From the NCBI GenBank assembly GCA_041659365.1, contig JBAZYH010000003.1, forward strand, positions 7,678 through 71,677: a stretch of DNA of 64,000 bases, read 5' to 3'. The notes below the pieces were generated by a model. That model was given only the letters and a program-made list of their open reading frames with translations. It did no database searches and was not told where the DNA came from. Within the stretch, counting starts at the first letter, position 1. Each line of letters begins with the position of its first letter. Positions 4,753-55,661 of this stretch are shown piece by piece. A program made the translations under genes and the position numbers. Source of the stretch: Minisyncoccota bacterium (GTDB taxonomy: Bacteria; Patescibacteriota; Minisyncoccia; Phycocordibacterales; GWA1-40-21).

Positions 4753-6042
4753 ATGTTAAAGAAGGGGAGTAAAACAAAATATTTTATTGTTGCTACCCTA
4801 TTTTTCTATATTATATTATGTAGTATATCTTTATCTCAGTCAATAGGTGAAATAAAAGACAAAATAGAACAGGCGACAGATAGTCAAAAACAATTAGAAA
4901 AAGAAATAGCTTCTTATGAAGCTCAACTGAAAACTATTAATGGTCAGGCAGATTCACTTGCCAATGCAATAAAAATTCTCGACACTACAATCAAGAAAAA
5001 TTCTACGGACATTAAACTAACCCAGAACAATATTAAAAAGACAGAATTGGAAATAGATAAACTTTCTTTAAATATTGATAGAAGTGTTGATGTTATAGAT
5101 CAAAATAGTAAAGTCATTGCTGAGATGATTAGTCAAACAAATAAAGCTGACACTTCAACTTTCATTGAAAATCTCCTTGTGTATGATGATTTTTCTCAAT
5201 TTTTAAATGAGGTTGAATCGCTTTATAAAATACAAAATAAAATAAGAGAAAAGGTGGATGAAACTAAAGTTGCTAAAAAGGGATTGGAGATAGATAAGGA
5301 CGATGCAATTATCGAAAGGAAAAAACTTTTAAGCTATAAGGCTGAGCTGGAAGATAAGAAAGTCATTTTAGAAATGAATAAGAAAGAAAAGAATCAGCTT
5401 TTGGTAAGCACAAAAAATCAAGAGTCTAATTATAAAAGTATGTTAGCTATTACAAAGGCTAAGCAAGAGGCTTTAGAAAAAGAAATAAGTAATTATGAAT
5501 CACAGTTAAGTTCAATCGTTGATATTAAAAGTTTTCCAAGTCCTAAGAGAGGGATTTTGTCATGGCCTTTGTTTAATGTTTATATAACTCAAAAATTTGG
5601 TTATACTGACTTTTCAAAGACTGCTTATACTGGTGGTCAACATACAGGGGTTGATTTTGGAACCTCTATCGGAACAAATGTGAAGGCATCTCTTGATGGT
5701 ATTGTTGAAGGTACTGGTAATACTGATGTGGCTTGTCCAGGTGCTTCTTTTGGTAATTGGATTCTTATAAAGCATAATAATGGACTTTCAACGCTGTATG
5801 GACACTTATCTTTAATTAAAGTAAAAAAAGGGGATAAAGTATCTACTGGTAGTCTAATAGGATATTCTGGTAATACAGGTTTTTCTACAGGACCACATTT
5901 ACATTTTGGATTATATGCAACAGAAGGTGTATCTGTAGATGTTTATAAATTTAATTCTTGTTATGGAGCGAGTGTTAAGATGCCAGTTTTAACAAAGAAA
6001 GAAAGTCGTCTTGATCCACTTAAATACTTACCAACAATTTAA
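4753..6042 (+). CDS. M23 family metallopeptidase with N-terminal signal/TM and long coiled-coil (EnvC/NlpD-like)
   Basis: Coiled-coil N-terminal half. C-terminal GVDFGTSIGTNVKASLDGIV ... HLHFGLY M23/LytM motifs. Confidence 0.8.
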   Translation: MLKKGSKTKYFIVATLFFYIILCSISLSQSIGEIKDKIEQATDSQKQLEKEIASYEAQLKTINGQADSLANAIKILDTTIKKNSTDIKLTQNNIKKTELEIDKLSLNIDRSVDVIDQNSKVIAEMISQTNKADTSTFIENLLVYDDFSQFLNEVESLYKIQNKIREKVDETKVAKKGLEIDKDDAIIERKKLLSYKAELEDKKVILEMNKKEKNQLLVSTKNQESNYKSMLAITKAKQEALEKEISNYESQLSSIVDIKSFPSPKRGILSWPLFNVYITQKFGYTDFSKTAYTGGQHTGVDFGTSIGTNVKASLDGIVEGTGNTDVACPGASFGNWILIKHNNGLSTLYGHLSLIKVKKGDKVSTGSLIGYSGNTGFSTGPHLHFGLYATEGVSVDVYKFNSCYGASVKMPVLTKKESRLDPLKYLPTI

Positions 6043-6130
6043 TTTTATTTTGTAAGTGATATAATTGATAAAAGAATATTGAATGTGGAATGTAGAATAT
6101 AAATAAATATTTAAATTAATAAGAATTAAA

Positions 6131-6388
6131 ATGAATTATCTTAAAGAAGAAAAAAAAGGTTTTATAAAAACAATAATATTAATAATCGTTGCTCTAATAA
6201 TTTTAGGATATTTTGGTTTCGATGTAGAAAATATAATTAAATCAGAAAGAGTTCAAAAAAATCTTAATTATGTGTGGGACATAGTTTCTAAAGTCTGGAC
6301 ACTTTATTTGGCAGCTCCTGTGATGTTTGTATGGGATAAATTCTTTGTTGGGGTTGTTTGGAAGACAATTGTATCTGTATTAAATTAA
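6131..6388 (+). CDS. Small hypothetical membrane protein (85 aa)
   Basis: Single hydrophobic helix. Followed by an intrinsic terminator at 6461-6484. Confidence 0.4.
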   Translation: MNYLKEEKKGFIKTIILIIVALIILGYFGFDVENIIKSERVQKNLNYVWDIVSKVWTLYLAAPVMFVWDKFFVGVVWKTIVSVLN

Positions 6389-6414
6389 TAAGAGTAATCT
6401 AGGTCATATTGTGT

Positions 6415-6446
6415 CTTTGCGAGTGACAGCGAAGCAATCCAGGTTA
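6415..6446. repeat. Family-C palindromic repeat (TCTTTGCGAG...GCGAAGCAATCCAGGTT)
   Basis: Reverse complement of the AACCTGGATTGCTTCGC...CTCGCAAAGA form seen at 9093-9123. Confidence 0.55.
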
Positions 6447-6460
6447 ATTAAATTTTATAA

Positions 6461-6484
6461 AAACCCCTAAAAAGGGGTTTTTGC
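6461..6484 (+). terminator. Rho-independent terminator
   Basis: CCCCTAAAAAGGGG hairpin followed by TTTTT. Confidence 0.7.
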
Positions 6485-6821
6485 TAAAAATATGAAAAAT
6501 GACATTTTAAGGTTTTTTAAGTAAAATTATTTTCATCTGATGGTGGAACAGTAGGGGAAAATATAATAAGTTTAAAGTTAAAAGTAAAAAGTTCATAAAG
6601 TATTATTTATTTACTTTATGAACTTTATAACTTTCAATTTTTTACTTATTCATGGGGGAAGTGCTTAATAGTTATCATAAGGCTTATTGTCGTATATAAT
6701 GCGGGCAAAGATATATTGTGCGACATATATATAATATTAAAACCTCCTATTCCCTATAGATATAAGGGTAAAATAAAACCACCTGATTTTATTCAGGTAG
6801 TTTTATTTTCTTAGTATTAAT

Positions 6822-7355
6822 TTATTTTGCTAGAGCTACTTGTACAGAATCTGTTATGGATTTCTCCGCTTGATTCCAACATGTAGATGAAGCTTTCCAA
6901 GGCTGCCCTCCCTCACGATTATAAAGGTACTCGGCATAGGCCATGTTACCTTCAAGGGTCTCTAGATCAAGTCCAAGCTTCTTTGCAGTGTCTGCATGAT
7001 AAAATTCATTTATCTGCATTAGACCTACATCGCCCTTATTGACCTTACCTCTTAGGACACTACCATCTTTGGTTAAATGTCTGAAGCTTGATTCACATCT
7101 AGCTATCTCAACAAGTAATGGGTCATTCTTAAAGAATTCTCTTGCTTTAGCTTCTAATTCTTTACTTGTCGGTATATTTGTCGTTGTTGTTTCTTCTATC
7201 CTTACAGAAGCACCAGGAGCTGTTGTAGTAGATATATTATCTATTGCAGGAGCTGTGGGTGAACCATAAATTGATGTAAGAACAAAAACTGACGTTGTTA
7301 TAATTTCAATCATATTAAAACCAGAGATGACTCTGATTCCTATATATACTAGCAT
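6822..7355 (-). CDS. Lytic transglycosylase (SLT-domain) protein, membrane-anchored
   Basis: ARCESSFRH...GLMQINEFY...AYAEYLY matches the SLT family-1 catalytic Glu-Ser / GLMQ / AYN-like motifs. N-terminal TM. Minus-strand terminator at ~6778-6808. Confidence 0.6.
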   Translation of the reverse strand: MLVYIGIRVISGFNMIEIITTSVFVLTSIYGSPTAPAIDNISTTTAPGASVRIEETTTTNIPTSKELEAKAREFFKNDPLLVEIARCESSFRHLTKDGSVLRGKVNKGDVGLMQINEFYHADTAKKLGLDLETLEGNMAYAEYLYNREGGQPWKASSTCWNQAEKSITDSVQVALAK

Positions 7356-9821: not shown

Positions 9822-9896
9822 TATATATAGAAAAACAGATGTTTGAGGTTTTGATAATCTCGTCTGTTTTGAAAACGTCTTATTAAGAGGTTTGTT

Positions 9897-10076
9897 ATGG
9901 GAAAGAAAATGGTAGTGATTGGTGTCGTGTTTGTGGTCGGGAGTATTCTTTTGGCCGGACTCGATTCGTTATTGGGGATGAGCTACTCGTCTTTTTTTGT
10001 AGCTATCACTCATAAGCTTGCATATATGATTTGGGGAGTATCTCTTTTTATGTCGTGCAAGTATCTTAGTTCGTAA
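9897..10076 (+). CDS. Small hydrophobic membrane peptide (59 aa)
   Basis: ATG with AAGAGG RBS. Two hydrophobic helices. Below the 60-aa ORF-track cutoff. Confidence 0.3.
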   Translation: MGKKMVVIGVVFVVGSILLAGLDSLLGMSYSSFFVAITHKLAYMIWGVSLFMSCKYLSS

Positions 10077-42568: not shown

Positions 42569-43351
42569 TTAACGATTTTTCAGACACCATTCTCTGGCAT
42601 TCTGAAACATCTTAAGCCACGGCGAAGCTTCCAGATCCTTCTTCCATGATTCGGGCATATATGACCATTGCCACTTCAAGAAACACCTTTCAGGATGAGG
42701 CATCATTGCAAGATGCCGTCCATCAGGCGAACAGAGAGCCGTCAATCCGTGTCCCGAACCATTCGGGTTAAACGGATATTTTTCTGTCGGCTCATTATTC
42801 GAATCCACATAGACGAGAGGTGCAAGATTTTTCTCAAACACTTCATCTAGTATTTTCAAATTGGGAAACACCAACTTTCCTTCACCATGAGCAATATGGA
42901 TACCAAGTGTTGATCCTTCCATATCCGCAAGTAGTACTGACGGACTTGGTTGAATCTTCACTTGACTCCACCTGGACTCAAATCGCCCAGACTTGTTGTG
43001 AATAAACCGCGGTTGAATTGTTTCGTCCAATCCTTTCCACGGCACCCAACCAAGTAATGCAAACAACTGACACCCGTTACAGACTCCCAAGGAGAACGTA
43101 TCTTTCCGGTCGTAAAACCGGTCAAACATTTCTCTGAGAATCGGGTTGAACTTAATTACTCCAGCCCAACCTTTGGCACTCTCAAAGACATCCATGTACG
43201 AGAACCCGCCGGTAGCGACAATACCCTGGAATTCCTCCAGACTTATCCTTCCCGCCAGTAAGTCACTCATTGTGATGTCATAAGGATCCAAACCAGCGGC
43301 AAAAAATGCCGCCGACATTTCACGATCACCGTTCGAGCCTTCTTCACGCAA
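42569..43351 (-). pseudogene. purL: 3' fragment of a large-type FGAM synthase (purL) gene: C-terminal class-I glutamine amidotransferase domain only
   Basis: REEGSNGDREMSAAFFAAGL...GVCNGCQ...MMPHPER is collinear with the last ~255 aa of ~1300-aa PurL. The reading frame is abruptly replaced at 43352 by recombinase-derived sequence. GC content ~45%. Confidence 0.8.
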
Positions 43352-43356
43352 GACGG

Positions 43357-43701
43357 CAAATAAATATGTTTACTACGGCTGTACTCGAGCAAGAAATATT
43401 AATTGCAAAGAAGGTTATATTGAAGAAAAAGTTCTTATTAATCAGCTTTTAGAGATAATAGACAAAATTGATTTAGATTCTTCAGGAATAAAGAAAAAAC
43501 TCAGTGCAGAAATTGAACGCCACAAAAAATTCCATTCAAATATAATGGGTAAAAAGAATGAAGTGTATGAAGCAAAGGATGTTGATGTAAGAAACTATGC
43601 AAAGTACCTATTAACTGATGGAACAATGTTTGAAAAACGGGACTTGTTGGTGTGTTTAAGGAGTAAGCTTTTACTTAAGAATAAATTTATTGATTTAGAT
43701 T
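43357..43701 (+). pseudogene. 3' fragment of a large serine recombinase gene (near-identical copy of the last ~115 codons of CDS 48113-49417)
   Basis: Translates to KYVYYGCTRARNINCKEGYIEEKVLINQLLEIIDKIDLDSSGIKKKLSAEIERHKKFHSNIMGKKNEVYEAKDVDVRNYAKYLLTDGTMFEKRDLL, near-identical to residues ~320-434 of the intact recombinase. Confidence 0.8.
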
Positions 43702-45491
43702 AATGATCTATCATTTAAATCAACACCATCTAATGCTGATATAGATCCTGTTGGGGGTTCAGTAATTTCTACTTCTGGACCACGTCCAAAACCCATAGTA
43801 TAGAAGAATTTTCCATACCTGTATTTCATATCATCAGGTAACAAAACATCTTTCATAAACTTTTCATTAACCATCAGAGTATCGGTATCTAAAAGAGGTT
43901 TTAGATCAATATAAAGAAGCCGTCTCATTCGTTCAGTTTGTTCATATTTCCATCCTCTCCCTTTTCTATCTGCACTTGTAGCGAGCGCAAACCCAAAAAA
44001 AGTTAGGTAGCTTCTTAATACACCTGGATAATGTTTTTTAATAACATTGATGGCTATCTGTTCCCAAATTCTTTTTTCAAATGGTGCTATATAACCTTGC
44101 TTATACTGACTTTCATAAATCATACCGTGTAATAATTCTAGTACGGTATGGTATGTATCATTTGTATGTTTAATGTAGTCTAAATGTGTAAAAGCTTGAT
44201 ATAAAGTAGCGGCAATCCCCTCATTAATAGTTGAGTTAGAGTAAAATCCCGCTTCTGTAGCAGTTTTCTCACGTTCAATTACTACTTGATTAAATTCATC
44301 TTCATAAGCAAGAAACGGGTAATCATGACCAAGAAAATTAGCAATTATGTGTAGCGACCACCATTTGTCTTTCAATACATATTTTGTATCAACACCACGT
44401 TCCTCTTCAGTATTAATTTCCAAACATAAATTATTAAATATTGAACTCAAATGAGAGAGTCCGTCATTGATATGACGAGCAGGAGCTAAACCCGTTTTTA
44501 AATATGCTTCTATTGCCTGTGAGAGAGCTTCTATAAAAACTTCAATCTGTATATTATTTAAACCAGATTGCATTTTGTAATCAATGGATGGCCAACTAAA
44601 TATATTAAAATTTGAAAGAATAAATGTAGATCCAAAAAGACTCCCGTAAAGATTAGTGGAAAGTGCGAGCCCACTCTTATCAAGGTGTGTATAGAGATAA
44701 GAATTTTGGTCAGAAAATAAATTTCTTACAATTCTGGGGAACCCTCGCACTCGCTGTTCAGTCAATTTATGTTCTTCTAGTATAAATATTATGTAACGAA
44801 GCGCATCTAATCTTTTTGTGGTTATTAAATCTACTATAGAAGCTTCGCCAAGAATCACATCAAGAATATTAATTGCAGATTGAGTTCCTTTGTTGTTGTA
44901 ATCTTGTTTTGCAAATTGACAGATATTATCCAAATTTTCTAAAAGTGCATTTAAAATTACATTGAGTCGTTCAGGGTTTGATCTAGATAATTCTCTAACC
45001 ATAACTTCATAAAATTTTCTTGAATTCTCTACCTTAAAAAGTTTTTTATTCGTGGCTTGTACAAAAAGAAACAATATTGAAAATGCTATTAAAATACTTG
45101 CTAAAATTTGCCAAAAAATCGATAATTGAAATACATACACAGGATTCTCAATAAGAATTATAGAAGAAATTATTGAAAATATAACTCCCAATGAAAGAGT
45201 TATAAAAACAACAGGTTGAATATAACTTTTAACTCGTAGTGCAATAAACCACTCTTCTTTTCTAAATTGATAAATTGCAAGCAAAATTGCTATGGAAGCT
45301 AATGCTTCGCCGACAGAGAAAAATATTGGTGGGTTTTGATAAGGATAGTTTGTTAAATTAAGAGTTAGAAAATGCATAATTGATTCAGCTACAGTTCCTA
45401 AACTATTTTTCGGAAGATAAATTAGTATAAAGAAAAAAACACAAGCAATAAGTTTGTAAAAATCGGCTTTTGTAATTTTTTCGTCTTCCAT
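43695..45491 (-). CDS. Hypothetical 598-aa protein: N-terminal 4-TM region plus large cytoplasmic alpha-helical domain
   Basis: No recognisable catalytic motif. Located inside the island next to the recombinase fragment. Confidence 0.45.
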   Translation of the reverse strand: MEDEKITKADFYKLIACVFFFILIYLPKNSLGTVAESIMHFLTLNLTNYPYQNPPIFFSVGEALASIAILLAIYQFRKEEWFIALRVKSYIQPVVFITLSLGVIFSIISSIILIENPVYVFQLSIFWQILASILIAFSILFLFVQATNKKLFKVENSRKFYEVMVRELSRSNPERLNVILNALLENLDNICQFAKQDYNNKGTQSAINILDVILGEASIVDLITTKRLDALRYIIFILEEHKLTEQRVRGFPRIVRNLFSDQNSYLYTHLDKSGLALSTNLYGSLFGSTFILSNFNIFSWPSIDYKMQSGLNNIQIEVFIEALSQAIEAYLKTGLAPARHINDGLSHLSSIFNNLCLEINTEEERGVDTKYVLKDKWWSLHIIANFLGHDYPFLAYEDEFNQVVIEREKTATEAGFYSNSTINEGIAATLYQAFTHLDYIKHTNDTYHTVLELLHGMIYESQYKQGYIAPFEKRIWEQIAINVIKKHYPGVLRSYLTFFGFALATSADRKGRGWKYEQTERMRRLLYIDLKPLLDTDTLMVNEKFMKDVLLPDDMKYRYGKFFYTMGFGRGPEVEITEPPTGSISALDGVDLNDRSLI

Positions 45492-45521
45492 GAAATGGAT
45501 TATACCAGAATAACCCCTTTA

Positions 45522-45551
45522 GGTCTTTCGATACTTTTATTCTTTGCTGCG
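45522..45551. repeat. att-like direct repeat copy 1 (GGTCTTTCGATACTTTTATTCTTTGCTGCG)
   Basis: Shares GGTC(C/T)TTCGATACT...CTTTGCTG with the copies at 54781 and 55588. Confidence 0.55.
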
Positions 45552-45655
45552 ATGTCTGGTCTAGTACGTACTGCACTAGATGTGATAAAGCTATTTTAGC
45601 ATATTCTAGACTCAGTCCCTAACCTGTTTAGGTCTATAATTATTCACGATAGCTT

Positions 45656-45865
45656 TAACAGTAAATACTGTTAATTTACTGTTAAAACCTTATTTTTACG
45701 CTATCACTTTTTTTATACTATTTTATGACCTTCTTGCAGTATTAACTGCATATTTACTGCAAGAACTACAAAATGACTTTTTATAAAATTGATGATTTTA
45801 GTCTATTTTTTATCTATTCTTAAAAAGCTGCTTTGCCAGTATTTACTGGCGATTTACTGGCAAAA
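45656..45865. repeat. Three related operator/iteron-like sites, each an inverted repeat followed by a direct repeat of TTTACTG(GC)
   Basis: CAGTAAATACTGTTAATTTACTG (45656-45690), GCAGTATTAACTGCATATTTACTGC (45738-45768), and GCCAGTATTTACTGGCGATTTACTGGC (45832-45865). Confidence 0.5.
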
Positions 45866-46027
45866 TAATAAAAAACACTTTTTATTATTAAACATGTTTT
45901 TTGATTACTTTTTAGGCAGTGTTCTAACACGTTTACAACATATATGTCAAATTAGTTGTTATGATTAATACAAAAATACCGTTCCCTATTTCAGAAACAG
46001 TATCTCTGTATTAATATATATTATAGA

Positions 46028-46693
46028 TTATTTATATACTTCCAATGATCCAGAAAATGCAGTAACTTCAGCAACTTTTTCATTTGAATATGCATCTAGA
46101 ACTTGGAAATGATGATATCCGGTTATTTTCTCTTTAAGAGTTGCTATTTTAGCCAAAAAGTCTTTCTTAAAAGCTACTGTTTGTGTATACCAAATTTTTC
46201 CTACATATATAACATTCGCTTTATTAGAAAACTCATATGAAGTTACAAGTCCCGCTTGTTTAGCTAAAGAAAATACAGAATCTAATTCTTTTTGTGCTTT
46301 TTGTTTTTCTTCTTCAGAAATAACATTTTTTGTAGTTGTACTTTTTACTACCTCTTTATTAGTATTTTGTATATTACTGTTATTAATTTGATTATTTACA
46401 CTACTAGTAAAACCAGGATTTCCATTAAATCCAGAAAAAGAAAGTAGTATTAACACAATAGCAACTAGAAAAACTTCTTGTTTGCCAGATAATATAAAAT
46501 TATATTTTTCTTTTATTTTCTTAGATACTGGAGGTAATAATATAAGACCTACAATTATTAGTATGACCTTATAAAATAAATTCATTCCTATACCACCTAA
46601 CCCTGACAACACAAAAAATATTCCAAATATCCAATTCCATTTTGAAGTTTTTGGTTGAACCTTAACTTCAGAAGGCTGATTTTCATTATTCAT
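46028..46693 (-). CDS. Hypothetical membrane protein (221 aa)
   Basis: Two N-terminal TM helices, an Asn/Ser-rich linker, and a C-terminal soluble domain. Confidence 0.4.
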   Translation of the reverse strand: MNNENQPSEVKVQPKTSKWNWIFGIFFVLSGLGGIGMNLFYKVILIIVGLILLPPVSKKIKEKYNFILSGKQEVFLVAIVLILLSFSGFNGNPGFTSSVNNQINNSNIQNTNKEVVKSTTTKNVISEEEKQKAQKELDSVFSLAKQAGLVTSYEFSNKANVIYVGKIWYTQTVAFKKDFLAKIATLKEKITGYHHFQVLDAYSNEKVAEVTAFSGSLEVYK

Positions 46694-46958
46694 AAAACTC
46701 TAGCGGGTTTTAATCGATAGAGGTAGAGCCTTCGTGAACAAAGAGCTCCCCGCCATCGCGATAGAACCTTTCGGCCCTACCCATACCAGTTTCCCGATAT
46801 GACCCGCTAGAGTGACTCTGACGAGGAGTCCTTTGTTCTCTAGCGGGTTTTGCAACCATATCCTTATTTCTAAGGGGTTAGGTCGACTTTTATTAAATTG
46901 TTATTGATATGATAGCACAATAAAAGCTATCATAAAAGTATACTAGCTTAAATTAAAA

Positions 46959-48065
46959 TTATTGTGTAGTAAAATTATCTACTTCTTCAAAAAAAGATTC
47001 AATTATTTTATCTTTCCTGTCAGAATAAGCAAACTCAAATATACTACTTAGTATTGCTTCTTCAATAATTCCGCCTATTATATATGGTTTAATATCACTA
47101 TTGGGTTTTATATAATACAGACATCTATTTATAGTAATTGGTAAGTAAATTAAAAAATTTTGATTTAATTCCCACAAAAAAATACCCAAAGATCTAAATT
47201 CATTAATATCATAAATATTAGCTGGGCTATCGGATAAATAAAAGAAAGCAGGTTCTTTTGATTCTAACATTCTTAATTCATATTTATACAACAACCCTGA
47301 TAAATAGTCAGCCGTTAATATTGATATTTTAATAATTAAATTTTCCATTCCAACTAAAGATTGATTGTTTTTATTTGTAAATTTAAAATATTCTACTGGA
47401 TTTATATTATAATAATTATCAAAAAGTGCTTTTTTAAAAAAATCTTTTTTTGTCATTTCCTCTATATTAATCTTTTTTTCTAAACTTAAATATTCTAAAA
47501 TTAATCTAATTTGAAGAAAAAATTTTGGAGTTCTTGTATATTGAAAAGCAATAAAAGAAGTCAAAATGCTTCTCTCAAAATTCGTCAAATTTATTTCATC
47601 ATTTTTAATTATTTTATTAATTATTCTTGACGTATATTTTTCTAAGGTTAAAGCAAAAATTTGCTTTTCTATAAAGTCACTTTGTTGCTTAGTTTCTTTA
47701 TCTCTAAAAGAATATAAATTAGGTGTACAAGCAGCCTCCTTATAGATTGAAATTGGATTATTTTTTTTAAAATATCCGTACTGATAAATTTGTCCTGTTC
47801 TAGGAATACTAAATCTTTTTAATAAAAATTTAGGAATATAGTGGTGAACAGCTTTTTTGTGTTCCAAAACATATACATCCTTTATTAACTTATTATAAAT
47901 ATTAAAAATAAACTTAGCTAAAAAAACTTTATCGATTTCCTTATCTAGACAATAAGACATAATTTTATCTGCTAAGATTAATCTTTGGTGATTAATTATC
48001 TTATTAATCTTATTAAAAATAATCATATACAATATATTATACTTTAATATAAAAATAGTTATCAA
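46959..48065 (-). CDS. DUF4238-like protein
   Basis: HHYIPKFLLKRFS resembles the DUF4238 N-terminal HYVPQFYLKNF signature. The true start is probably the internal Met at ~47960. Confidence 0.45.
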   Translation of the reverse strand: MITIFILKYNILYMIIFNKINKIINHQRLILADKIMSYCLDKEIDKVFLAKFIFNIYNKLIKDVYVLEHKKAVHHYIPKFLLKRFSIPRTGQIYQYGYFKKNNPISIYKEAACTPNLYSFRDKETKQQSDFIEKQIFALTLEKYTSRIINKIIKNDEINLTNFERSILTSFIAFQYTRTPKFFLQIRLILEYLSLEKKINIEEMTKKDFFKKALFDNYYNINPVEYFKFTNKNNQSLVGMENLIIKISILTADYLSGLLYKYELRMLESKEPAFFYLSDSPANIYDINEFRSLGIFLWELNQNFLIYLPITINRCLYYIKPNSDIKPYIIGGIIEEAILSSIFEFAYSDRKDKIIESFFEEVDNFTTQ

Positions 48066-48112: not shown

Positions 48113-49417
48113 ATGCAAACGCAAAACCCGCTAAATGTGACTCTAGACGAAACAAAGGCCGTAAATTACTGCTTATATGCCCGTAAATCAAGCGAGGCCG
48201 AGGAGAGACAAGCTTTATCGATAGATTCTCAGCTTAAGGAAATGTTAACCATTGCACAGCGAGATGGACTCAATATAATCGAAATTTATAGAGAATCTCA
48301 CTCAGCAAAAGATTGCGGGCAAAGACCAGTTTTTAATCAATTAATTTTAGACTTAAAATCAGGAAAGTTTAATGGAATACTTGTATGGCACCCAGACCGA
48401 TTATCAAGAAACGCTGGTGACCTCGGAGCTCTTGTAGATTTACTTGATCAAAAGAAACTGGTTGAGATAAGAACTTTTAGTCAAAGATTTACAAACAATC
48501 CAAATGAAAAGTTTCTATTAATGATTCTTGGTTCCCAAGCAAAACTTGAAAATGATAATAAAAGTGTAAATGTAAAACGTGGATTAAAAGCAAAGTGTGA
48601 AATGGGACTTTGGCCAGCACAAGCACCAACCGGATATCTAAATTCAAAAAATAGAGATCAAACAGGTATAGTTTTTGTTGATCCAGATAGAGCACTTGTT
48701 ATAAAAGAAATATTCCGAAAAGTAGCTTACGAAGGTTTAAGTGGTAGAAAAATATTTAAATGGCTAAAGGATATAAAATTTGTAACAAAAAATAATAAAT
48801 CACTGACACTAAGTAATATCTATACAATATTAAACAATCACTTTTATTATGGAAGCTTTGAATATCCAAAAGAAAGCGGTAGATGGTTTCAAGGTAAACA
48901 TATTTCTTTAATATCAAAAGATCTATTTGATGATGTACAAAGACAGTTACATACACAAATAAAAACTAATGTAAAAAATAAGGAATTTACTTTTACTAAA
49001 ATGCTCACATGCGGAGGTTGTGGTTCTGGAGTAACAGCTCAAGAAAAGTATAAAACACTAAAAGATGGGACGATAAATAAATATGTTTACTATGGTTGTA
49101 CTCGAGCTAGAAATATTAGTTGTAAAGAAGGTTATATTGAAGAAAAAATCCTTATAAATCAACTTTTAGAAATAATAGATAATCTAGATTTAGATTCTTC
49201 AGGAATAAAGAAAAAACTTTCGTTTGAGATTGAAAGACATAAAAAGTTTCATTCGAATATAATGGGGAAGAAAAATGAGCTATATGAAGCAAAGGATGTA
49301 GATATAAGAAACTATGCTAAGTATTTATTAACCGAGGGAACAATGTTTGAAAAAAGAGATTTATTAGGATGTTTGAAATCTAAAATTATCTTAAAAAATA
49401 AAATAGTATTTATTTAA
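48113..49417 (+). CDS. Large serine recombinase (resolvase N-domain + recombinase domain + zinc-ribbon)
   Basis: Catalytic YARKSSEAEERQALSIDSQ (Ser nucleophile) and DRLSR. C-terminal Cys cluster CGGCGS...YYGC. Length 434 aa. Confidence 0.85.
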   Translation: MQTQNPLNVTLDETKAVNYCLYARKSSEAEERQALSIDSQLKEMLTIAQRDGLNIIEIYRESHSAKDCGQRPVFNQLILDLKSGKFNGILVWHPDRLSRNAGDLGALVDLLDQKKLVEIRTFSQRFTNNPNEKFLLMILGSQAKLENDNKSVNVKRGLKAKCEMGLWPAQAPTGYLNSKNRDQTGIVFVDPDRALVIKEIFRKVAYEGLSGRKIFKWLKDIKFVTKNNKSLTLSNIYTILNNHFYYGSFEYPKESGRWFQGKHISLISKDLFDDVQRQLHTQIKTNVKNKEFTFTKMLTCGGCGSGVTAQEKYKTLKDGTINKYVYYGCTRARNISCKEGYIEEKILINQLLEIIDNLDLDSSGIKKKLSFEIERHKKFHSNIMGKKNELYEAKDVDIRNYAKYLLTEGTMFEKRDLLGCLKSKIILKNKIVFI

Positions 49418-51039
49418 AGTGTTCTTATATCAACTTTTAATCGCCTGTTAACCAATTTTTGATATATATTTTTTATACTAACAATATCCTTTTTTGATAA
49501 TTTTAAATTCTTTTTAAGAATAACGTTATCTGTAAAATTTAAAATATCTTCTTTCGACTCTTTATTTCTCAGCATTGTATCGAGTTTATTAAAATCTGAT
49601 TGATTAATTTTTATATATGGTACAGGTATATTCTTAAATTCATTTGGTATTAGTTCCAATACTCCACCGCCGTAATATCTACCCTCAAGTTCCGTAAAAA
49701 TTAAACTTAATGTATTTAAGAAACAAAAAGATAAATTTTTAATATCATAACCATCTTTCATCATAATCCGATAGAAAGCATCTGTAACATTAACTTTTGC
49801 ATCATTTACAACTATCCTTGGGAAAAAATTACTTCTTTTAATAAAAAACCCCTCGGATGGCCATATACTTGAAACATGAAACCAATTATTTCTTATTTTG
49901 CATTTATATCCATTATTAACACCATTATTTTCACCAAGTTTTATATATTTTTTAATTTTTTTTGGAAAATAATTTTCCGATTTATCTTCTAAAGATAGTA
50001 GAAATACTGGTTTATCTCTTTCTTTTAAAAACGAAAAATCAGTACGGGTTATAATTAGAGAAGTGGGAATAAAAGAACTTTTTTGTAAAATTGGTTTGCA
50101 ATATTTTTTAATATTAAACTTATCAGCTGTAGTTTTATTTATAATAAAAAAATCATTGGCGGCAGTAACAATACCAACTTGGACTTTTGAATAATCTTTT
50201 ATAGCCAAAAGATCTTTCTTGAACTTATCTAAAAAAGACAGTTCTTTTTGTGACAAAATATAATTGGTCCATTTATCTAGAGTATCTCTGTCAATATTAG
50301 TATTACCAGGAATAAGATCCGGTTTTTTTAAATCATCAAGTCTGTTTGCTTGAAAAAAAGAAACCTCTTTGTTTTTTGATGATTTAGTCCCAATAATTAT
50401 TATTACATCCTGTTCAATCCCATCAAAAACAAGTTCATTAAATGCAAATATTTCAATTTTATTTAATTTTTTTCTTAGATAGTCCCTTATTTCTTTTGCA
50501 TAAGAAACTTGTAGTAATTCAGCAGGTAAAACAAATGAAACAATACCATTATCATTTAGTGATTCTACAGATCCAATTAAAAAAGCTGTCCAGACATTCT
50601 TTATTTTTTTATTTGAAAGATTAGCTTTAGCGTGAATTTTTTCACATAAATCAAGCTGTTTTTTTGTAAGATGATTTTTTTTAATATAAGGCGGATTACC
50701 TATAACAAGATCATATTTTTGTGAATTATTTTTTTCAAATTCTAAATAATCAATTAAATGAGGTATAATTTTTGTATCTTTATCTTTAAAATTACTAGGA
50801 ATTATTATTGATTTTTTTAGCTCGGATTCCTCTCGTTCAACAATTTCTAATGTTATTTTTTTATTGTTTTTGTTATTTTTTATAAGAGAACTAACAAAAA
50901 TACCATCTCCAACACTTGGTTCTAAAATTTTAATCTCATTAGGAAGAGAGTAATGTTTGGTATTAAAAATTCGCTTAACTATAAAGTTAGAAATTATTTC
51001 TGGCGTATAGTATGATCCATTTTTCTTTTGATTTATCAT
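49414..51039 (-). CDS. N6-adenine DNA methyltransferase (gamma class, Eco57I/TaqI-like) with C-terminal target-recognition domain
   Basis: GSYYTPE (motif X), EPSVGDGIF (motif I), and GNPPYIKK (motif IV). Length 541 aa. Overlaps the HNH gene by 4 nt. Confidence 0.8.
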   Translation of the reverse strand: MINQKKNGSYYTPEIISNFIVKRIFNTKHYSLPNEIKILEPSVGDGIFVSSLIKNNKNNKKITLEIVEREESELKKSIIIPSNFKDKDTKIIPHLIDYLEFEKNNSQKYDLVIGNPPYIKKNHLTKKQLDLCEKIHAKANLSNKKIKNVWTAFLIGSVESLNDNGIVSFVLPAELLQVSYAKEIRDYLRKKLNKIEIFAFNELVFDGIEQDVIIIIGTKSSKNKEVSFFQANRLDDLKKPDLIPGNTNIDRDTLDKWTNYILSQKELSFLDKFKKDLLAIKDYSKVQVGIVTAANDFFIINKTTADKFNIKKYCKPILQKSSFIPTSLIITRTDFSFLKERDKPVFLLSLEDKSENYFPKKIKKYIKLGENNGVNNGYKCKIRNNWFHVSSIWPSEGFFIKRSNFFPRIVVNDAKVNVTDAFYRIMMKDGYDIKNLSFCFLNTLSLIFTELEGRYYGGGVLELIPNEFKNIPVPYIKINQSDFNKLDTMLRNKESKEDILNFTDNVILKKNLKLSKKDIVSIKNIYQKLVNRRLKVDIRTL

Positions 51040-51683
51040 TTATGTTTTCGACTAACATCAGTAATCTCATACGACGGTATTTTTTTAAGATCAAGGATAA
51101 GTTTATTTATATCCCCACTCAATTTAGCGAGTGTTTTTAAATATTTAATTGATTTTTTATTTCCCAAAACACCAAGATCTTTAATTAAGTTCATATAATT
51201 TTGATTTAATTTATTTAAATCTTGATCTAAAAAATATTGTCTGCGTTCTAAAATCAATTGTGGCCTATTAAAATATAATCTTTCTACCATGTATCTTGAT
51301 GCAATATATTTGCCAGAAACAATTCCAGTATTTGTATTAAGATTAAAGATGTTTGAGTAATCAATTTTTGAAGGATCTGGATAAGAACTGTTATTTAAAT
51401 GTCTGTTTGGTTCAGCTGGCCAATCATTTAATTTAAAACGGTTACAAATTGGGCAAGAATAAAAGAGGTTTTCTAAGATATGTTCCAATGTTGGGAATTT
51501 TGATTTAGGTTTATAATGTTCAACATGAAAAGCCTGGATACCGCCTAATGCATTTTCATGAATCGCACAATATACACAACGAAAACCCCCTTCTTGTCTC
51601 AGGAATTCTTTAACTCTAGAATCATGACATCCGTAAGACTCAACCGTGAGATTCGTTGTTTTCTGAATTTTTGACCATTTCAT
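51036..51683 (-). CDS. HNH endonuclease
   Basis: CVYCAIHEN...FHVEHYKPKS...CPICNRFK gives the Cys4 plus His-Asn-His (HNH) core. Length 215 aa. Confidence 0.75.
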   Translation of the reverse strand: MKWSKIQKTTNLTVESYGCHDSRVKEFLRQEGGFRCVYCAIHENALGGIQAFHVEHYKPKSKFPTLEHILENLFYSCPICNRFKLNDWPAEPNRHLNNSSYPDPSKIDYSNIFNLNTNTGIVSGKYIASRYMVERLYFNRPQLILERRQYFLDQDLNKLNQNYMNLIKDLGVLGNKKSIKYLKTLAKLSGDINKLILDLKKIPSYEITDVSRKHK

Positions 51684-51685
51684 TT

Positions 51686-52366
51686 TTATTTCTTATTTTT
51701 TTGATTTAAATATCTTTTTGCTTCTTTTTGTGCCATTTTAAAACTATCTATAACTTCCTGATATGCATCGAGCCATTCTTTTCTACTATTTAAAGCAATC
51801 GTGGTAACAGGTATCTCAAGATTTTTTTGTATTGCCTCCGCCCTCTTTTTTTGTTTCGTTGTAGCTTTTCCAATTGCGATTCTTTTTGAAATCATAGAAA
51901 GTTCCGTTAATTCTTTTTCGTTAGATTCTAAAAAGTTTTTATAAGTTCGAAGAAATCTTTCCACATAGAGGCTAGCTTTACTTGAAAAATCTTCGCGTTT
52001 CATTACTTCATCAAATAATGCAAAGTGTTGTTGCATAGATGGATCATCTGGATAAGAAGTGACTCCGTAAATTGGCATCCCTTTAAATTGTGTTCGAAGT
52101 ATGTTAACTAGATCACTACCTTTATAATTTACAGATTTTCCTGAAGTACCAGGAACCTCACCTAATCTTTCATCAAGAATTAAAACTCCTATTTGCTCAT
52201 TATTTATCCACTTTGAATAATCTCCTAGGTTTAAAAATGGTGTGGTTTCAATAACAGACCAATTATTTTTTATATCTAAATTAATGATTGCATCTTCAAT
52301 AACATCTGCAACCATTTTTCTTGCGTCATCACGATCGTCTACTACAGCGATTTTTGTTGTTTTCAT
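51686..52366 (-). CDS. Orphan receiver (REC)-like domain protein with helical C-terminal extension
   Basis: KIAVVDDRDD acidic pair, a candidate phospho-acceptor Asp in VLILDERLG, and a T/S in GVTSYP. About 100-aa C-terminal region with no DNA-binding motif recognised. Confidence 0.45.
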   Translation of the reverse strand: MKTTKIAVVDDRDDARKMVADVIEDAIINLDIKNNWSVIETTPFLNLGDYSKWINNEQIGVLILDERLGEVPGTSGKSVNYKGSDLVNILRTQFKGMPIYGVTSYPDDPSMQQHFALFDEVMKREDFSSKASLYVERFLRTYKNFLESNEKELTELSMISKRIAIGKATTKQKKRAEAIQKNLEIPVTTIALNSRKEWLDAYQEVIDSFKMAQKEAKRYLNQKNKK

Positions 52367-52370
52367 ATTT

Positions 52371-54569
52371 TTAATTTGATGGTAACCAGATACGAAATTT
52401 AGCTCCTTTTAATTTTTGATCTTTTGTTACTTCTCGATCTCCACCTAATTCGTCGACGGTAGATTTAACAATTGTAAGTCCCAATCCTGTACCTTCTTCT
52501 TTACCATTTTTATCTTTCTTTGTAGTAAATAATGGTTCCCAAATTATATCTGTTATTGTTTTATCAACACCGACTCCACTGTCTGCAACTACAATTTCAA
52601 AACCTTTTTTTAATCCAATATTTTTTTCATAAAGTTCAATACGAACTTTTCTGTTATTCGAAATCTGACTACAGGCAGTATATGCATTTGTTAAAAGATT
52701 CAAAACTATAGATTCAAGATCCATAACAAAAACTTTTGCGTCAACCTCTTTCAAGTCCTTTATTATCTCAATTTTAATTACCTTAAAGGCTTCTTCAACT
52801 TCATTGATTACAACCTCTACAGCGCTTTTTACATTTACTTTTTGACGGGTTCTTTTATCTTTTCTAACACGGGCCATGGCAAATGCACCCCAAGAAGAAA
52901 CTTGCTTTGCATATCCAAGAGAAGTACTTAATTGATCTAAAGCTCTTTTTACATTTGGTCCCGTTTTAAGTGAAAGAGAAGATTGTGCAGCTGAAACCCC
53001 CGAACGGAAAAGTGATACTGCTGTTTGAGTCTCGTGTCCAAAAACGGCAGCCGCTATACCAACAGTAGCAAGGCCACTCAAAACTCGATTATTATCAAGT
53101 AACTCCTCAAATCTTTTTTTTGTTTCCTCTGTTCTTTTAATAACATCGGCAATTTGTCCGATAGATTCTTTATTTTCTTTTCCAATTCCAGACCCAAGTT
53201 TATTACTTAGACTTTCAAGATCTTTTTGGAAAGTTTCAAGATTTTGTCTATAATTATCTACCTCTTCAATTAATCCGGCTTTATTATTTTTTTCATTTTG
53301 TTTTTTTTCAATTAATGCTTTTTCGTGTCTATGTTTTTCAATCAAAGTGACGCAAGCGAGAGTTAATGCTCTTAAATCATAAAAAGCATCACTTTCAATA
53401 AGACCCTCTCTTGAAGCACCGTCTATTAGTTGTGGATTAGTATCTCTACCAATAGCAACTGCTCCAACTATTTGATGGGATGAGACTTTATAAGAAGGTC
53501 GAAGTAAACCAGCAGGATCTCTTTCTTTTCTTTGGGCAAGCCCTAACCAATCACCGGCAGGTTCATTATTATAACCATAAGGTTTTACACTGATCTGATC
53601 CCTGTATATTTTAATACCAAGATTTTTATCTAAAAAGTTTCTTAGTCCAGAAAAACTAAGTCCTTTTTCTAAAAGCAATGGGTTATTTTTTGTTCGTCCA
53701 AAAAATAAAATATCAATTGATACTGGTCCACATTTAAGAGTGTTGTTGAATCCTATATCTGTATTTACTCTTTGTGAAAGTTTATCCCAGGATATTTCGT
53801 TTTTATAATAAAGATTTTTAGAATTAATTTTTTCAATTATTTTATATTTTATTTTTTGTGTTTTTTCATCAAAAATTGCTTGAAGAGAGATTTCCGACGC
53901 CTCATAATATGAAGATTTTACTACTCCATTTAATTCTTCAACAAGATGATTATGAAATCGTATTTCAAAATCTTTTACAGCTGAAAAGGGTGAGATGAGA
54001 GCAGTAAGTTCACTGTAAACCTGTTCGATATCTACTTTTAACCATGTTTGTCTTAAATTTGAAATCAATATTTCTGTACCAGTATTTCGATCAGATTTGG
54101 GTATTTTTATGTTCTGAGTATTTAATATACTAACCTGTATATCTGAAAGATCCTTGCCGTCAACATTAAACTGTTCCCAGTTAACAGAAAGTTTTAATGG
54201 TGTGATTTCGCTAGTTTTAGTTATAAGTGAAAGTTTTTCACCTAATCTATCCGCAGAAAGACGCCCGATGCCTTTTTCACCAGTTTTACGTCTTGATTTT
54301 TTAGTAAGTTTTATTAATTTTTTATCAGAAAAACCAATACGTAACCAATTTTCTTCAAGTTGAGGACCTGTCATACCAATACCATTATCAGCGACACGGA
54401 TATTATCCTTATTTATTTCTACTTCCACGACAGTAGCATCTGCGTCATAGCTGTTTTTTACCAATTCTAAAAGAGCTGTTGTTGGATTTTTAATACTATC
54501 ACGTCCTAGATTAATAACTGTCCGTGCATCAATAGTAAACGATTTATTTTTTTTATTTTCTTTAAACAT
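52371..54569 (-). CDS. 732-aa protein with two GHKL ATPase domains: N-terminal MORC/HATPase_c_3-like and C-terminal histidine-kinase-type HATPase_c preceded by a possible degenerate H-box
   Basis: N-terminal ELVKNSYDADA (N-box), DNGIGM (G1), GEKGIGRLS (G2). Central FGHETQ (H-box candidate). C-terminal LLTNAYTA (N), VADSGVGV (G1), GTGLGLTIVK (G2). Confidence 0.65.
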   Translation of the reverse strand: MFKENKKNKSFTIDARTVINLGRDSIKNPTTALLELVKNSYDADATVVEVEINKDNIRVADNGIGMTGPQLEENWLRIGFSDKKLIKLTKKSRRKTGEKGIGRLSADRLGEKLSLITKTSEITPLKLSVNWEQFNVDGKDLSDIQVSILNTQNIKIPKSDRNTGTEILISNLRQTWLKVDIEQVYSELTALISPFSAVKDFEIRFHNHLVEELNGVVKSSYYEASEISLQAIFDEKTQKIKYKIIEKINSKNLYYKNEISWDKLSQRVNTDIGFNNTLKCGPVSIDILFFGRTKNNPLLLEKGLSFSGLRNFLDKNLGIKIYRDQISVKPYGYNNEPAGDWLGLAQRKERDPAGLLRPSYKVSSHQIVGAVAIGRDTNPQLIDGASREGLIESDAFYDLRALTLACVTLIEKHRHEKALIEKKQNEKNNKAGLIEEVDNYRQNLETFQKDLESLSNKLGSGIGKENKESIGQIADVIKRTEETKKRFEELLDNNRVLSGLATVGIAAAVFGHETQTAVSLFRSGVSAAQSSLSLKTGPNVKRALDQLSTSLGYAKQVSSWGAFAMARVRKDKRTRQKVNVKSAVEVVINEVEEAFKVIKIEIIKDLKEVDAKVFVMDLESIVLNLLTNAYTACSQISNNRKVRIELYEKNIGLKKGFEIVVADSGVGVDKTITDIIWEPLFTTKKDKNGKEEGTGLGLTIVKSTVDELGGDREVTKDQKLKGAKFRIWLPSN

Positions 54570-54780
54570 ATTAAAACTATTTACTCTAAAATATTAAAAT
54601 ACTCTGCATACTGCAGTTTCACCTGAAGAATCAACTAACCTGATATATCATCTCATATTTTATGACTTTTCTCAATTAATTTACAACAACACATAATATT
54701 ATGGATGTGTTTAATTTTAATATAATAGAAATCAAACTTAGATAGAATCTTATACCAAATTTTAAAATTCTACCGCTCAT

Positions 54781-54819
54781 GGTCCTTCGATACTAATTTC
54801 CTTTGCTGCTGCTCTAGGA
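54781..54819. repeat. att-like direct repeat copy 2
   Basis: GGTCCTTCGATACTAATTTCCTTTGCTGCTGCTCTAGGA. Confidence 0.55.
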
Positions 54820-54904
54820 CTGTCACTAGGTCTAGTACTGGCTATAAATATACACCTAATTAAAAAATTCGCTAGTTTTTTTAGTTCTAGTCCTAAGTTT
54901 AAAA

Positions 54905-55414
54905 TTAATTTAAAAATGTTTTAATTTTTTCAACAGCTTCGTTAAAATCATCTCCAACTTTAATAACCACTAATGGTAATTGAGCTTCTTTTAATATTTC
55001 TATTTTTTCGTTATCAGTTTCAATCTGCTTGAGTTTGTTATGATACCCTCCATTTAATTCTACCGCGACAACTGGTTTGAAATATAAATCACAGATTATA
55101 AAATCTATATGTTTGGGCATAATTTTTCTTGCCATATTTTTATATCCATAGTATTCATTGGTTTTTATTGGCTCAACAATATCAGCCAAGCGCATATTCG
55201 GGAAAATATGATAGTTGTGTGGTAACTTATTTTGTAATTCAAAAAATAGAGCAGATTCTGTTTTGTTCATTAAACTAAATTTTTTATTATATCTAGCTAA
55301 TTTTGGTTCTGGTGTTTTTACTAAAATATCAGAATTGTTTATACTATGCCATTTCCTGTTTAGTATATAAATAAGAAAAAGTAATATTACTACCCACATT
55401 AAAAATATATTCAT
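54905..55414 (-). CDS. DUF2726-like (restriction-endonuclease-fold) membrane-anchored protein
   Basis: ESALFFELQNKLPHNYHIFPNMRLADIV...HIDFIICD...PVVAVELNGGYH matches the DUF2726 pattern (E..Y..L......V.PQV.LADV...HVDFVLCD..P.LAIELDD.SH). Confidence 0.5.
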   Translation of the reverse strand: MNIFLMWVVILLFLIYILNRKWHSINNSDILVKTPEPKLARYNKKFSLMNKTESALFFELQNKLPHNYHIFPNMRLADIVEPIKTNEYYGYKNMARKIMPKHIDFIICDLYFKPVVAVELNGGYHNKLKQIETDNEKIEILKEAQLPLVVIKVGDDFNEAVEKIKTFLN

Positions 55415-55587: not shown

Positions 55588-55661
55588 GGTCCTTCGATAC
55601 TTTTTTACTTTGCTGTGGAACTAGGAATCGAACCGAATTCATTATAACACAAAGCTTTTCA
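55588..55661 (-). repeat. att-like direct repeat copy 3 fused to a tRNA 3'-end-like fragment (T-arm GGTTCGATTCC + acceptor-like TAGTTCCACAG)
   Basis: Minus-strand reading is ...GGTTCGATTCCTAGTTCCACAGCAAAGTAAAAAAGTATCGAAGGACC. No complete cloverleaf could be folded. Confidence 0.45.

Follow-up and report, generated by a model that had tools for sequence, protein, structure and literature searches.

Why is a MORC-like ATPase that carries a histidine-kinase core encoded, together with a stand-alone receiver, beside an HNH nuclease and a DNA methyltransferase (MTase)? The question is raised by a locus from Candidatus Paceibacterota, a lineage of the candidate phyla radiation (CPR), which occupies positions 49414-54569 of the minus strand in the 64-kb stretch of contig JBAZYH010000003.1 analysed here (the window) and is known here from its sequence alone. 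Four intact minus-strand open reading frames (ORFs) of, in transcription order, 732, 226, 215 and 541 amino acids (aa) are packed tightly, with gaps of 4 and 2 nucleotides (nt) and, between the last two, an overlap of 4 nt; ORF calling reproduced the coordinates and spacings given in a first-pass annotation of this DNA, and every motif quoted there was found and its codons verified. That annotation had proposed a phospho-relay-coupled nuclease/MTase defence module of an architecture not previously described. The first part of the proposal is supported by a complete kinase core of DHp and catalytic (CA) domains, a receiver with an invariant aspartate, and homology to the validated system Ambrosia, whilst the second is wrong, as both paraMORC-kinase/receiver pairs beside restriction-modification (R-M) genes (PMC8011034) and Ambrosia itself (10.1101/2025.09.30.679545) are on record. 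The annotation had itself named an outcome that would count against it, namely that a known system includes the HNH protein and accounts for the locus; this largely applies, Ambrosia covering most of it. Overall, we consider it probable that the operon encodes a defence system of the Ambrosia type, directed against phages and other mobile DNA, with an AbrB-AbrC-AbrD-like core and a swapped-in Eco57I-type MTase, carried on a serine-recombinase island at tRNA-Gln; because this kind of system has already been described and validated, the discovery is incremental.

Ambrosia was named, and validated as an anti-phage system, in Pseudomonas aeruginosa in a 2025 preprint (10.1101/2025.09.30.679545) that reports it only in Gammaproteobacteria. 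Its genes encode AbrR (a HipB-like XRE protein), AbrA (an N6-MTase), AbrB (a HATPase/histidine kinase of 747 aa, listed in Table S1 of the preprint with HATPase_c, HATPase_c_3 and HATPase_c_5), AbrC (REC) and AbrD (HNH), and point mutations in every one of these proteins, including AbrB N40A, AbrC D60A and AbrD H60A, abolish defence. When the window proteins were compared by BLASTP with the Table S1 sequences, the 732-aa protein matched AbrB residues 1-399 (34% identity over 402 aa, E 2e-68), the 226-aa protein matched AbrC (27% identity over 143 aa, E 2e-13) and the 215-aa protein matched AbrD (30% identity over 139 aa, E 3e-17); N40, D60 and H60, on which defence by Ambrosia depends, align with and are kept as N39, D65 and H56, respectively. 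The MTase matched AbrA in the catalytic domain only (24% identity, E 4e-5). Profiles iterated from the window proteins recovered AbrC (2.5e-49), AbrD (4.2e-46) and AbrA (1.5e-38), and these matches together identify the window operon as homologous to the Ambrosia core, with which it shares a protein uniting HATPase_c_3 and a histidine kinase, a free-standing receiver whose tail is helical, an HNH protein resembling PtuB and a clustered N6-adenine MTase. Judged by these alignments, the window operon belongs to the Ambrosia/paraMORC-kinase family as a divergent variant of four genes, found in a CPR bacterium and lacking an XRE gene. The literature yielded no other name for the operon and no later work on it. 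Two candidate prior descriptions were set aside: VcSduA, from the Vibrio cholerae WASA paper, is a paraMORC3-Shedu fusion and not the same protein (PMC12137116), and DefensePredictor mentions only an unvalidated HATPase/REC prediction.

Several points weigh against the assignment to Ambrosia. The core of the window operon is only 27-34% identical to its counterparts, the comparison with AbrB and AbrA covers the first 399 residues only, Ambrosia rests on a single preprint, and the window locus is known from sequence and models alone. The fifth gene, for the XRE regulator AbrR, is missing: the 335-nt region upstream of the operon (54570-54904) holds no ORF of at least 35 aa, only a 34-aa low-complexity ORF, and the genes neighbouring the operon encode a DUF2726 protein and the recombinase. 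The MTase is not an AbrA orthologue; it has 541 aa and a target-recognition domain and is encoded downstream of the HNH gene, whereas AbrA has 448 aa and is encoded upstream of the kinase. PADLOC 2.0, which matched the individual MTase (MTase_II) and PtuB-like models, recognised no complete system in the operon. The model of the 732-aa protein is of moderate confidence only (predicted local distance difference test, pLDDT, 73), and the winged helix-turn-helix (wHTH) reported for AbrC is not detectable in the receiver family, either by profile searches or in the low-confidence helical model of the tail. The two systems also differ in setting, the window operon lying in Paceibacterota on a serine-recombinase island at tRNA-Gln.

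Domain architecture of the four proteins

The first-pass annotation had assigned to the 732-aa protein two GHKL domains, the second of kinase type and preceded by a possible H-box, to the 226-aa protein a REC-like fold, and to the remaining two an HNH nuclease and a gamma-class N6-adenine MTase with a target-recognition domain. Profile hidden Markov model and structure searches uphold each of these assignments, and exclude that the first protein is other than a kinase-type GHKL protein or the second other than a REC fold. In the 732-aa protein, Pfam identifies HATPase_c_3 near the N-terminus and HATPase_c at residues 617-731 (E values in Table 1). The first ATPase carries ELVKN39SYDADA, D61NGIGM and G97EKGIGRL, and its residues E35/N39, D61xGxG65, G97xxGxG102 and G164-T165 are invariant or near-invariant in two alignments, A1 and A3 (N39 itself shows no variation in A1 and is conserved at 90% or more in A3). 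The middle domain, which keeps YRD...KPYG...DWL...REG motifs, is probably a transducer/S5-like domain, as suggested by the model. In the C-terminal half, the His-Glu pair of the candidate H-box FGH512ETQ is invariant, H512 (codon 53034-53036) being so across 58 diverse homologues, as are N624, N628, G693, G695 and G697 of the N and G2 boxes (LLTN628AYTA, G693TGLGL); D663, G665 and G667 of the G1 box (D663SGVGV; D663xGxG667) are conserved at 90% or more.

The predicted structure of the 732-aa protein opens with a Bergerat fold, continues through a middle alpha/beta domain and long helices bearing H512, and ends in a C-terminal ATP-binding domain. Fold searches matched its last ~250 residues to the complete DHp+CA cores of HK853, ZraS and CpxA, and its first ~460 residues, at the level of the whole model, to the N-terminal and middle domains of Hsp90 (~465 columns); the C-terminal half is thus a complete kinase core. 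NCBIfam likewise relates the N-terminus to that of the BbrUII/HgiDII restriction enzymes and the C-terminus to many sensor kinases. The protein is soluble, with no membrane or classical sensor domain, and is identical to one from a metagenome-assembled genome of Candidatus Paceibacterota. Its homologues number at least 1985 database matches, with 538 loci in a one-genome-per-species collection; pipelines name the kinase and receiver genes 'sensor histidine kinase', 'ATP-binding protein' or 'hypothetical protein', and in PADLOC the models that match the kinase cover no more of it than the first ~180 residues, while the receiver matches none.

The 226-aa partner carries VVD10D11RDD and LILD65ERLG, and its assignment as a receiver is supported despite a Pfam Response_reg score below threshold (17.8 vs 30.2 bits). 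Its AlphaFold model (mean pLDDT 77.7) has a (beta-alpha)5 receiver topology over residues 1-124 (pLDDT 80-91), followed by three helices of lower confidence without a beta wing, and all leading Foldseek matches in the PDB are receiver domains (PorX, RcsB, HupR, NtrX, PhoP and Spo0F; probability 1.0). Among 75 genes directly following a kinase homologue (position +1), 30 of which match Response_reg, the phospho-acceptor D65 (codon 52172-52174) is invariant and D10 and T103 are near-invariant; the receiver Lys position corresponds to K123/R124, of which R124 is invariant in the close family. The receiver family comprises 393 clusters at 50% identity. A classical two-component system shares these elements, i.e. 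the DHp histidine and N, G1 and G2 boxes in the kinase, and a receiver fold with the acidic pair, Asp, Thr and Lys position.

For the 215-aa protein, the predicted nuclease residues are C36xxC39, H53, the catalytic H56, N72 and C77xxC80-N81 (codons checked). It matches Pfam HNH (4.5e-6) and PADLOC PtuB (1.2e-20), together with the NCBIfam models PtuB, at a score of 31.6 for a cutoff of 150, and TIGR02646. The catalytic domain of the 541-aa MTase (residues 4-238) has YYTP (10-13), GDG and NPPY (115-118), and residues 255-491 form the target-recognition domain. Pfam returns Eco57I, N6_Mtase and M_Eco57I_C (5.7e-36), and the PADLOC model MTase_II PDLC03267, a REBASE-derived type II model, is matched over the full length (2.9e-152).

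Table 1. Features of the operon and its surroundings (window coordinates; att, attachment site).
Feature	Coordinates	Strand	Evidence or remark
AbrB-like sensor kinase, 732 aa: paraMORC-type GHKL ATPase + histidine-kinase core	52371-54569	-	ORF, Pfam, AbrB homology
N-terminal Bergerat-fold ATPase, residues 30-150	54120-54482	-	Pfam PF13589, 3.7e-23
Middle alpha/beta domain, ~residues 200-392	53394-53972	-	invariant columns (A1, A3), model secondary structure
Coiled-coil + DHp helices, residues 394-572, H-box FGH512E513T	52854-53390	-	conservation, model, fold matches
Kinase catalytic (CA) domain, residues 576-731	52377-52844	-	Pfam PF02518, 8.8e-24
AbrC-like stand-alone receiver, 226 aa	51686-52366	-	ORF, AbrC homology
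Receiver (REC) domain, residues 1-124	51995-52366	-	model, Foldseek, conservation
Helical C-terminal domain of receiver protein, residues 125-226	51689-51994	-	model; output or adaptor domain
AbrD-like PtuB-type HNH nuclease, 215 aa	51036-51683	-	Pfam HNH, PADLOC PtuB, AbrD homology
Gamma-class N6-adenine DNA MTase, Eco57I type, 541 aa	49414-51039	-	Pfam, PADLOC
Large serine recombinase	48113-49417	+	Pfam Resolvase, Recombinase, Zn_ribbon_recom
Upstream non-coding leader/promoter region (function inferred)	54570-54779	-	no XRE gene
att-like tRNA-Gln 3' end remnant + flank, left boundary of operon segment	54781-54808	-	repeat + L001 alignment
Second att-like tRNA-Gln remnant, other boundary of operon segment	45522-45549	-	repeat + L001 alignment
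Third att-like tRNA-Gln remnant copy	55588-55615	-	repeat + L001 alignment

Conservation and relation to described systems

The neighbourhoods of the best 79 homologous loci and the window (80 in all) were compared by ORF calling and iterative profile searches. A receiver-like gene follows the kinase gene directly in 67 of the 80 loci and a PtuB-like HNH gene stands at position +2 in 45, all four gene types being found in 39; an N6-MTase gene lies within 3 kb in every HNH-type locus with enough flanking sequence. The same gene order thus recurs in many phyla, which disposes of the concern that the four genes might never be conserved together, and since the arrangement is found in dozens of unrelated genomes it is no chance juxtaposition. 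The hosts include Paceibacterota, Bacteroidota, Gemmatimonadota, candidate division TM6, Legionella, Planctomycetota, Chloroflexota, Elusimicrobiota, Acidobacteriota, Verrucomicrobiota and others, extending the range of Ambrosia from Gammaproteobacteria to many phyla, including Paceibacterota in the CPR.

Mirror-tree analysis separates the MTase from the remainder of the operon. Pairwise distances of kinase, receiver and HNH protein correlate with one another (Spearman 0.77-0.85), whereas those of the MTase correlate with the other three at only 0.19-0.34. The conserved core is therefore the kinase-receiver-HNH triad, with the MTase as an exchangeable module; on the sequences compared, the MTase is obligatory for the system and interchangeable between lineages, and the XRE regulator is dispensable. 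Full-length relatives are found on 32 plasmids, and the two inspected (from Klebsiella and Hymenobacter) carry genes for an N6-methylase, the kinase, a 'hypothetical' protein and then an HNH or metallo-beta-lactamase (MBL) nuclease; the phage genomes searched contain almost no full-length homologues. On the Klebsiella variicola plasmid pBM374-1 (L081), the AbrB-like gene at 4977-7247 is annotated as three coding sequences (ATP-binding, hypothetical, ATP-binding), and is either a frameshifted pseudogene or affected by assembly errors.

The effector at position +2 varies: across 68 loci it is an HNH protein in 42 and an MBL-fold protein in 15 (mostly cyanobacteria), and occasionally a C5-methylase or an HhH-GPD glycosylase. 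In the MBL sister branch (the cyanobacterial loci L039, L040, L048, L050, L053, L055, L057-L060, L063, L068, L069 and L071, and the Hymenobacter plasmid L082, where an N6-methylase gene lies directly upstream), a ~340-aa MBL-fold protein stands instead of the HNH protein and the receiver has a different, unrelated C-terminal domain. A long-receiver branch (L032, L044, L049, L051, L056, L062, L066, L073, L075, L077, L078 and L080) has, after the kinase gene, a gene for a ~350-430-aa protein with an N-terminal receiver and a long C-terminal part; two of these proteins give sub-threshold matches to Pfam Response_reg_2, and some of the genes are followed by one for a C5-methylase or an HhH-GPD glycosylase. 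Of the branches, it is this one that probably comes nearest to the family described in 2021, which we consider next.

Proteins combining HATPase_c_3, HEF_HK and HATPase_c were described computationally by Bellieny-Rabelo et al. 2021 (PMC8011034). The HEF_HK set is mostly proteobacterial; 91.6% of its members are linked to a Response_reg_2 gene, it is enriched near type II R-M genes, with links to C5-methylases, Vsr and HNH_2, and a paraMORC origin was proposed for it (PMC8011034). The window proteins share with it a HATPase_c_3, DHp (His-Glu) and HATPase_c arrangement in a soluble protein, an adjoining receiver-like gene with no known output domain, and the R-M association, and differ in that their clade uses N6-adenine MTases and PtuB-like HNH proteins. 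Neither PF19191 (HEF_HK) nor PF19192 (Response_reg_2) matched the window proteins even at E<=10; among the relatives PF19191 matches 4 of 58 kinases and PF19192 3 of 75 receivers, all three below the gathering threshold. This mismatch places the 2021 family as a sister branch.

Other described systems share single elements with the operon. The MORC/paraMORC ATPases known from R-M systems (Iyer, Abhiman & Aravind 2008, PMC2292703), like the GHKL-Shedu protein VcSduA (PMC12137116), also begin with a HATPase_c_3 Bergerat ATPase, its motifs intact, followed by a middle domain, and occur in R-M or defence contexts (paraMORC1 also shares the HNH association), whereas the window protein has a full histidine-kinase core in place of a nuclease or other C-terminal domain, and a separate receiver. 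In Septu (PtuA-PtuB) and the PtuB effectors of retrons, a PtuB-type HNH nuclease is similarly placed under an ATPase partner; the window operon differs in having no PtuA-type ABC/AAA ATPase, and in control by a GHKL-kinase and a receiver. In Detocs (DtcA-DtcB-DtcC), reportedly described by Rousset et al. in 2023, a cytoplasmic histidine kinase is said to sense infection and to phosphorylate a receiver that unleashes an effector. The concept of an infection-sensing kinase acting through a receiver on an effector is shared, whereas Detocs has a TPR sensor, a buffer receiver and a receiver-fused nucleosidase, and the window operon has a paraMORC GHKL sensor, no buffer receiver, and a separate HNH nuclease and MTase; the Detocs models in PADLOC gave no match to the window proteins at E<=0.1.

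Possible routes from sensor to nuclease

Judged by homology and by the conserved motifs, the likeliest mechanism is a His-to-Asp relay in which the MORC-like GHKL ATPase and middle domain of the 732-aa protein would detect an infection cue, probably a state of DNA or nucleoprotein, and the cue would drive autophosphorylation of H512 by the C-terminal kinase domain. The phosphoryl group would then pass from H512 to D65 of the receiver, the equivalent of the D60 that is essential in Ambrosia, and the phosphorylated receiver may, by way of its helical C-terminal domain, switch on the PtuB-like HNH protein to damage invading DNA, with the MTase supplying a DNA-methylation component. The manner in which the receiver acts is the step on which the candidate explanations diverge, and here the C-terminal domain supplies most of the evidence.

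This domain is homologous to that of AbrC (1.1e-12), which the preprint (10.1101/2025.09.30.679545) proposes as a transcription factor, reporting a wHTH in it and the induction, on infection, of reporters at the positions of abrA and abrD. A purely transcriptional output, in which the phosphorylated receiver binds the operon promoter through a DNA-binding C-terminal domain and induces MTase and HNH protein only on infection, is possible if somewhat doubtful; it draws on these observations and on a ~90-nt upstream block that is kept in the closest relative. Profile searches of the receiver tail, AbrC's included, against PDB and Pfam, however, found no helix-turn-helix (HTH), wHTH or other known family, giving only insignificant helical-bundle matches, and the modelled tail is helical with no beta wing. 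Moreover, the tail accompanies the HNH effector, being present in 42 of 45 HNH-type loci (as in AbrC) and in 2 of 23 non-HNH loci (Fisher p 2e-12, the loci not being phylogenetically independent), and both of the latter are contigs that end before the +2 gene; confinement to HNH effectors suits an effector-specific adaptor. The sensor gene is also one of four translationally coupled genes of a single operon, so that induction alone cannot silence the nuclease relative to the sensor.

The data on the C-terminal domain, which come from sequences and models, are no harder to reconcile with an effector-specific adaptor than with a transcription factor, and direct protein-level licensing of the HNH protein fits them at least as well as transcriptional induction does. 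Tentatively, we suggest that the receiver may be a phosphorylation-controlled adaptor, rather than a transcription factor, that licenses the HNH protein directly, and that the family may swap adaptor/effector pairs (HNH, MBL-fold nuclease, glycosylase) under one paraMORC-kinase sensor. Mirror-tree comparison of the C-terminal domain with the HNH protein, with the kinase controlled for, gave a partial correlation of 0.18, no higher than for other pairs. In two loci (L030, 12435-13878, and L070, 12520-14107, from a Lachnospiraceae bacterium and Paenibacillus) a short receiver (162-172 aa) that lacks the C-terminal domain is paired with a long HNH protein (315-368 aa), to which a further, unrelated domain is added at the C-terminus; a Rosetta-stone transfer of the C-terminal domain onto the HNH protein was considered for this pair and rejected, the C-domain profile matching receiver proteins only. 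What is new here is a receiver tail with no DNA-binding signature, found only with HNH effectors, and an exchangeable MTase, and the first of these gives grounds, open to test, for doubting the published transcription-factor model. If the adaptor reading is true, a two-component immune switch working at the protein level, with a freely exchangeable MTase, would be widespread among bacterial phyla, the CPR among them. The four-gene version is compact enough that it could become a minimal model for MORC-like ATPase sensing and receiver control of a PtuB-type nuclease.

A conventional type II R-M pair is an unlikely explanation, in which the MTase would protect the host and the HNH protein would cut unmethylated sites, the kinase and receiver merely tuning expression or activity, e.g. 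by delaying the nuclease in a new host. The full-length match of the MTase to a REBASE-derived type II model, its target-recognition domain, the presence of an N6-MTase in every HNH-type locus with enough flank, and the enrichment of such kinase/receiver pairs near type II R-M genes (PMC8011034) are all in keeping with it. Phages grown on AbrA-expressing cells nevertheless stayed sensitive to Ambrosia, so that AbrA methylation gave them no protection (10.1101/2025.09.30.679545), and the HNH protein belongs with the PtuB/retron-Septu nucleases, not with a known sequence-specific restriction endonuclease family. The family and position of the MTase, furthermore, vary freely while the HNH protein co-evolves with kinase and receiver, which would be unexpected for a cognate specificity pair.

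The association with a mobile element suggests a further alternative, a selfish addiction cassette for the tRNA-Gln island, in which, once the island was lost, dilution of the MTase or of inhibitory signalling would unleash the nuclease. R-M modules can behave as stabilisation (addiction) cassettes. Such behaviour is discussed for them in PMC8011034, and in two Paceibacterota genomes a serine recombinase gene accompanies the operon, with att-like repeats flanking it. This explanation is nonetheless quite improbable, given that the core occurs without a recombinase in most other phyla, and that the homologous Ambrosia protects directly against phage without host toxicity (10.1101/2025.09.30.679545). 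An ordinary housekeeping two-component system lying by chance beside an unrelated R-M pair, as pipeline names such as 'sensor histidine kinase' might imply, is already disfavoured and scarcely credible, in view of the gene order kept across phyla, the co-evolution of kinase, receiver and HNH protein, the lack of a membrane or classical sensor domain and of a detected DNA-binding output, and the location on a mobile island.

The tRNA-Gln island and its other cargo

The operon lies in a recombinase-bearing island, as the first-pass annotation had proposed: a large serine recombinase gene is convergent with the MTase gene, overlapping it by 4 nt, and the operon stretch is lower in G+C than its flanks. 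The recombinase is probably the integrase of the island. In the closest relative, L001 from Paceibacterota, the same recombinase is encoded in the same convergent position. A 28-40-nt motif occurs in three copies in the window, with none expected by chance, and aligns with the 3' end and flank of an intact tRNA-Gln(TTG) directly upstream of the L001 operon; it consists of a remnant of the tRNA-Gln 3' end and ~35 nt of flank with a GGACC..GGTC hairpin, the T-arm GGTTCGATTCCTAG..CAGCA being best preserved in the 55.6-kb copy. The copies bound two tandem segments, at 45.56-54.78 kb (operon and recombinase) and 54.82-55.59 kb (DUF2726 gene). The operon thus travels as cargo on an integrative island whose target is tRNA-Gln, a setting similar to that of other defence cargo.

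The most striking repeat upstream of the operon was considered as a conserved operator and rejected, as it is one of these att-like remnants. Just 5' of the kinase start, a ~90-nt block at 54600-54690 (minus strand) is kept in L001 (~9880-9960), a comparison of two sequences only. The block holds a ATTCTTCAGG..AAACTG.AGTAT element, and a promoter-like site, TTGAGA-17-GATGAT, is found at 54675-54647 in the window (TTGAAA..GACAAT in L001); the block may be a promoter or operator. Promoter-like and terminator-like sites were not enriched over shuffled sequence.

Further genes of the island, at 43695-48065 and 54905-55414 (minus strand), encode a protein of 598 aa that matches no family and has a membrane region at its N-terminus, a membrane protein of 221 aa, and the DUF4238 (2.9e-27) and DUF2726 (2.4e-20) proteins. 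None of these had a meaningful match in PADLOC; they could be additional defence or accessory genes. Between the 221-aa ORF and the DUF4238 gene, Rfam identifies a LOOT RNA (RF03000) at 46760-46884 (minus strand), scoring 76.9 bits against a gathering threshold of 46.4 (E 2.6e-13). An in-frame remnant of a second large serine recombinase, comprising its last 113 aa and 87% identical to the product of 48113-49417, lies at 43353-43691 (plus strand), where it abuts a purQ/purL-like ORF (42569-43351, minus strand), and points to an older copy of a related element that has since decayed.

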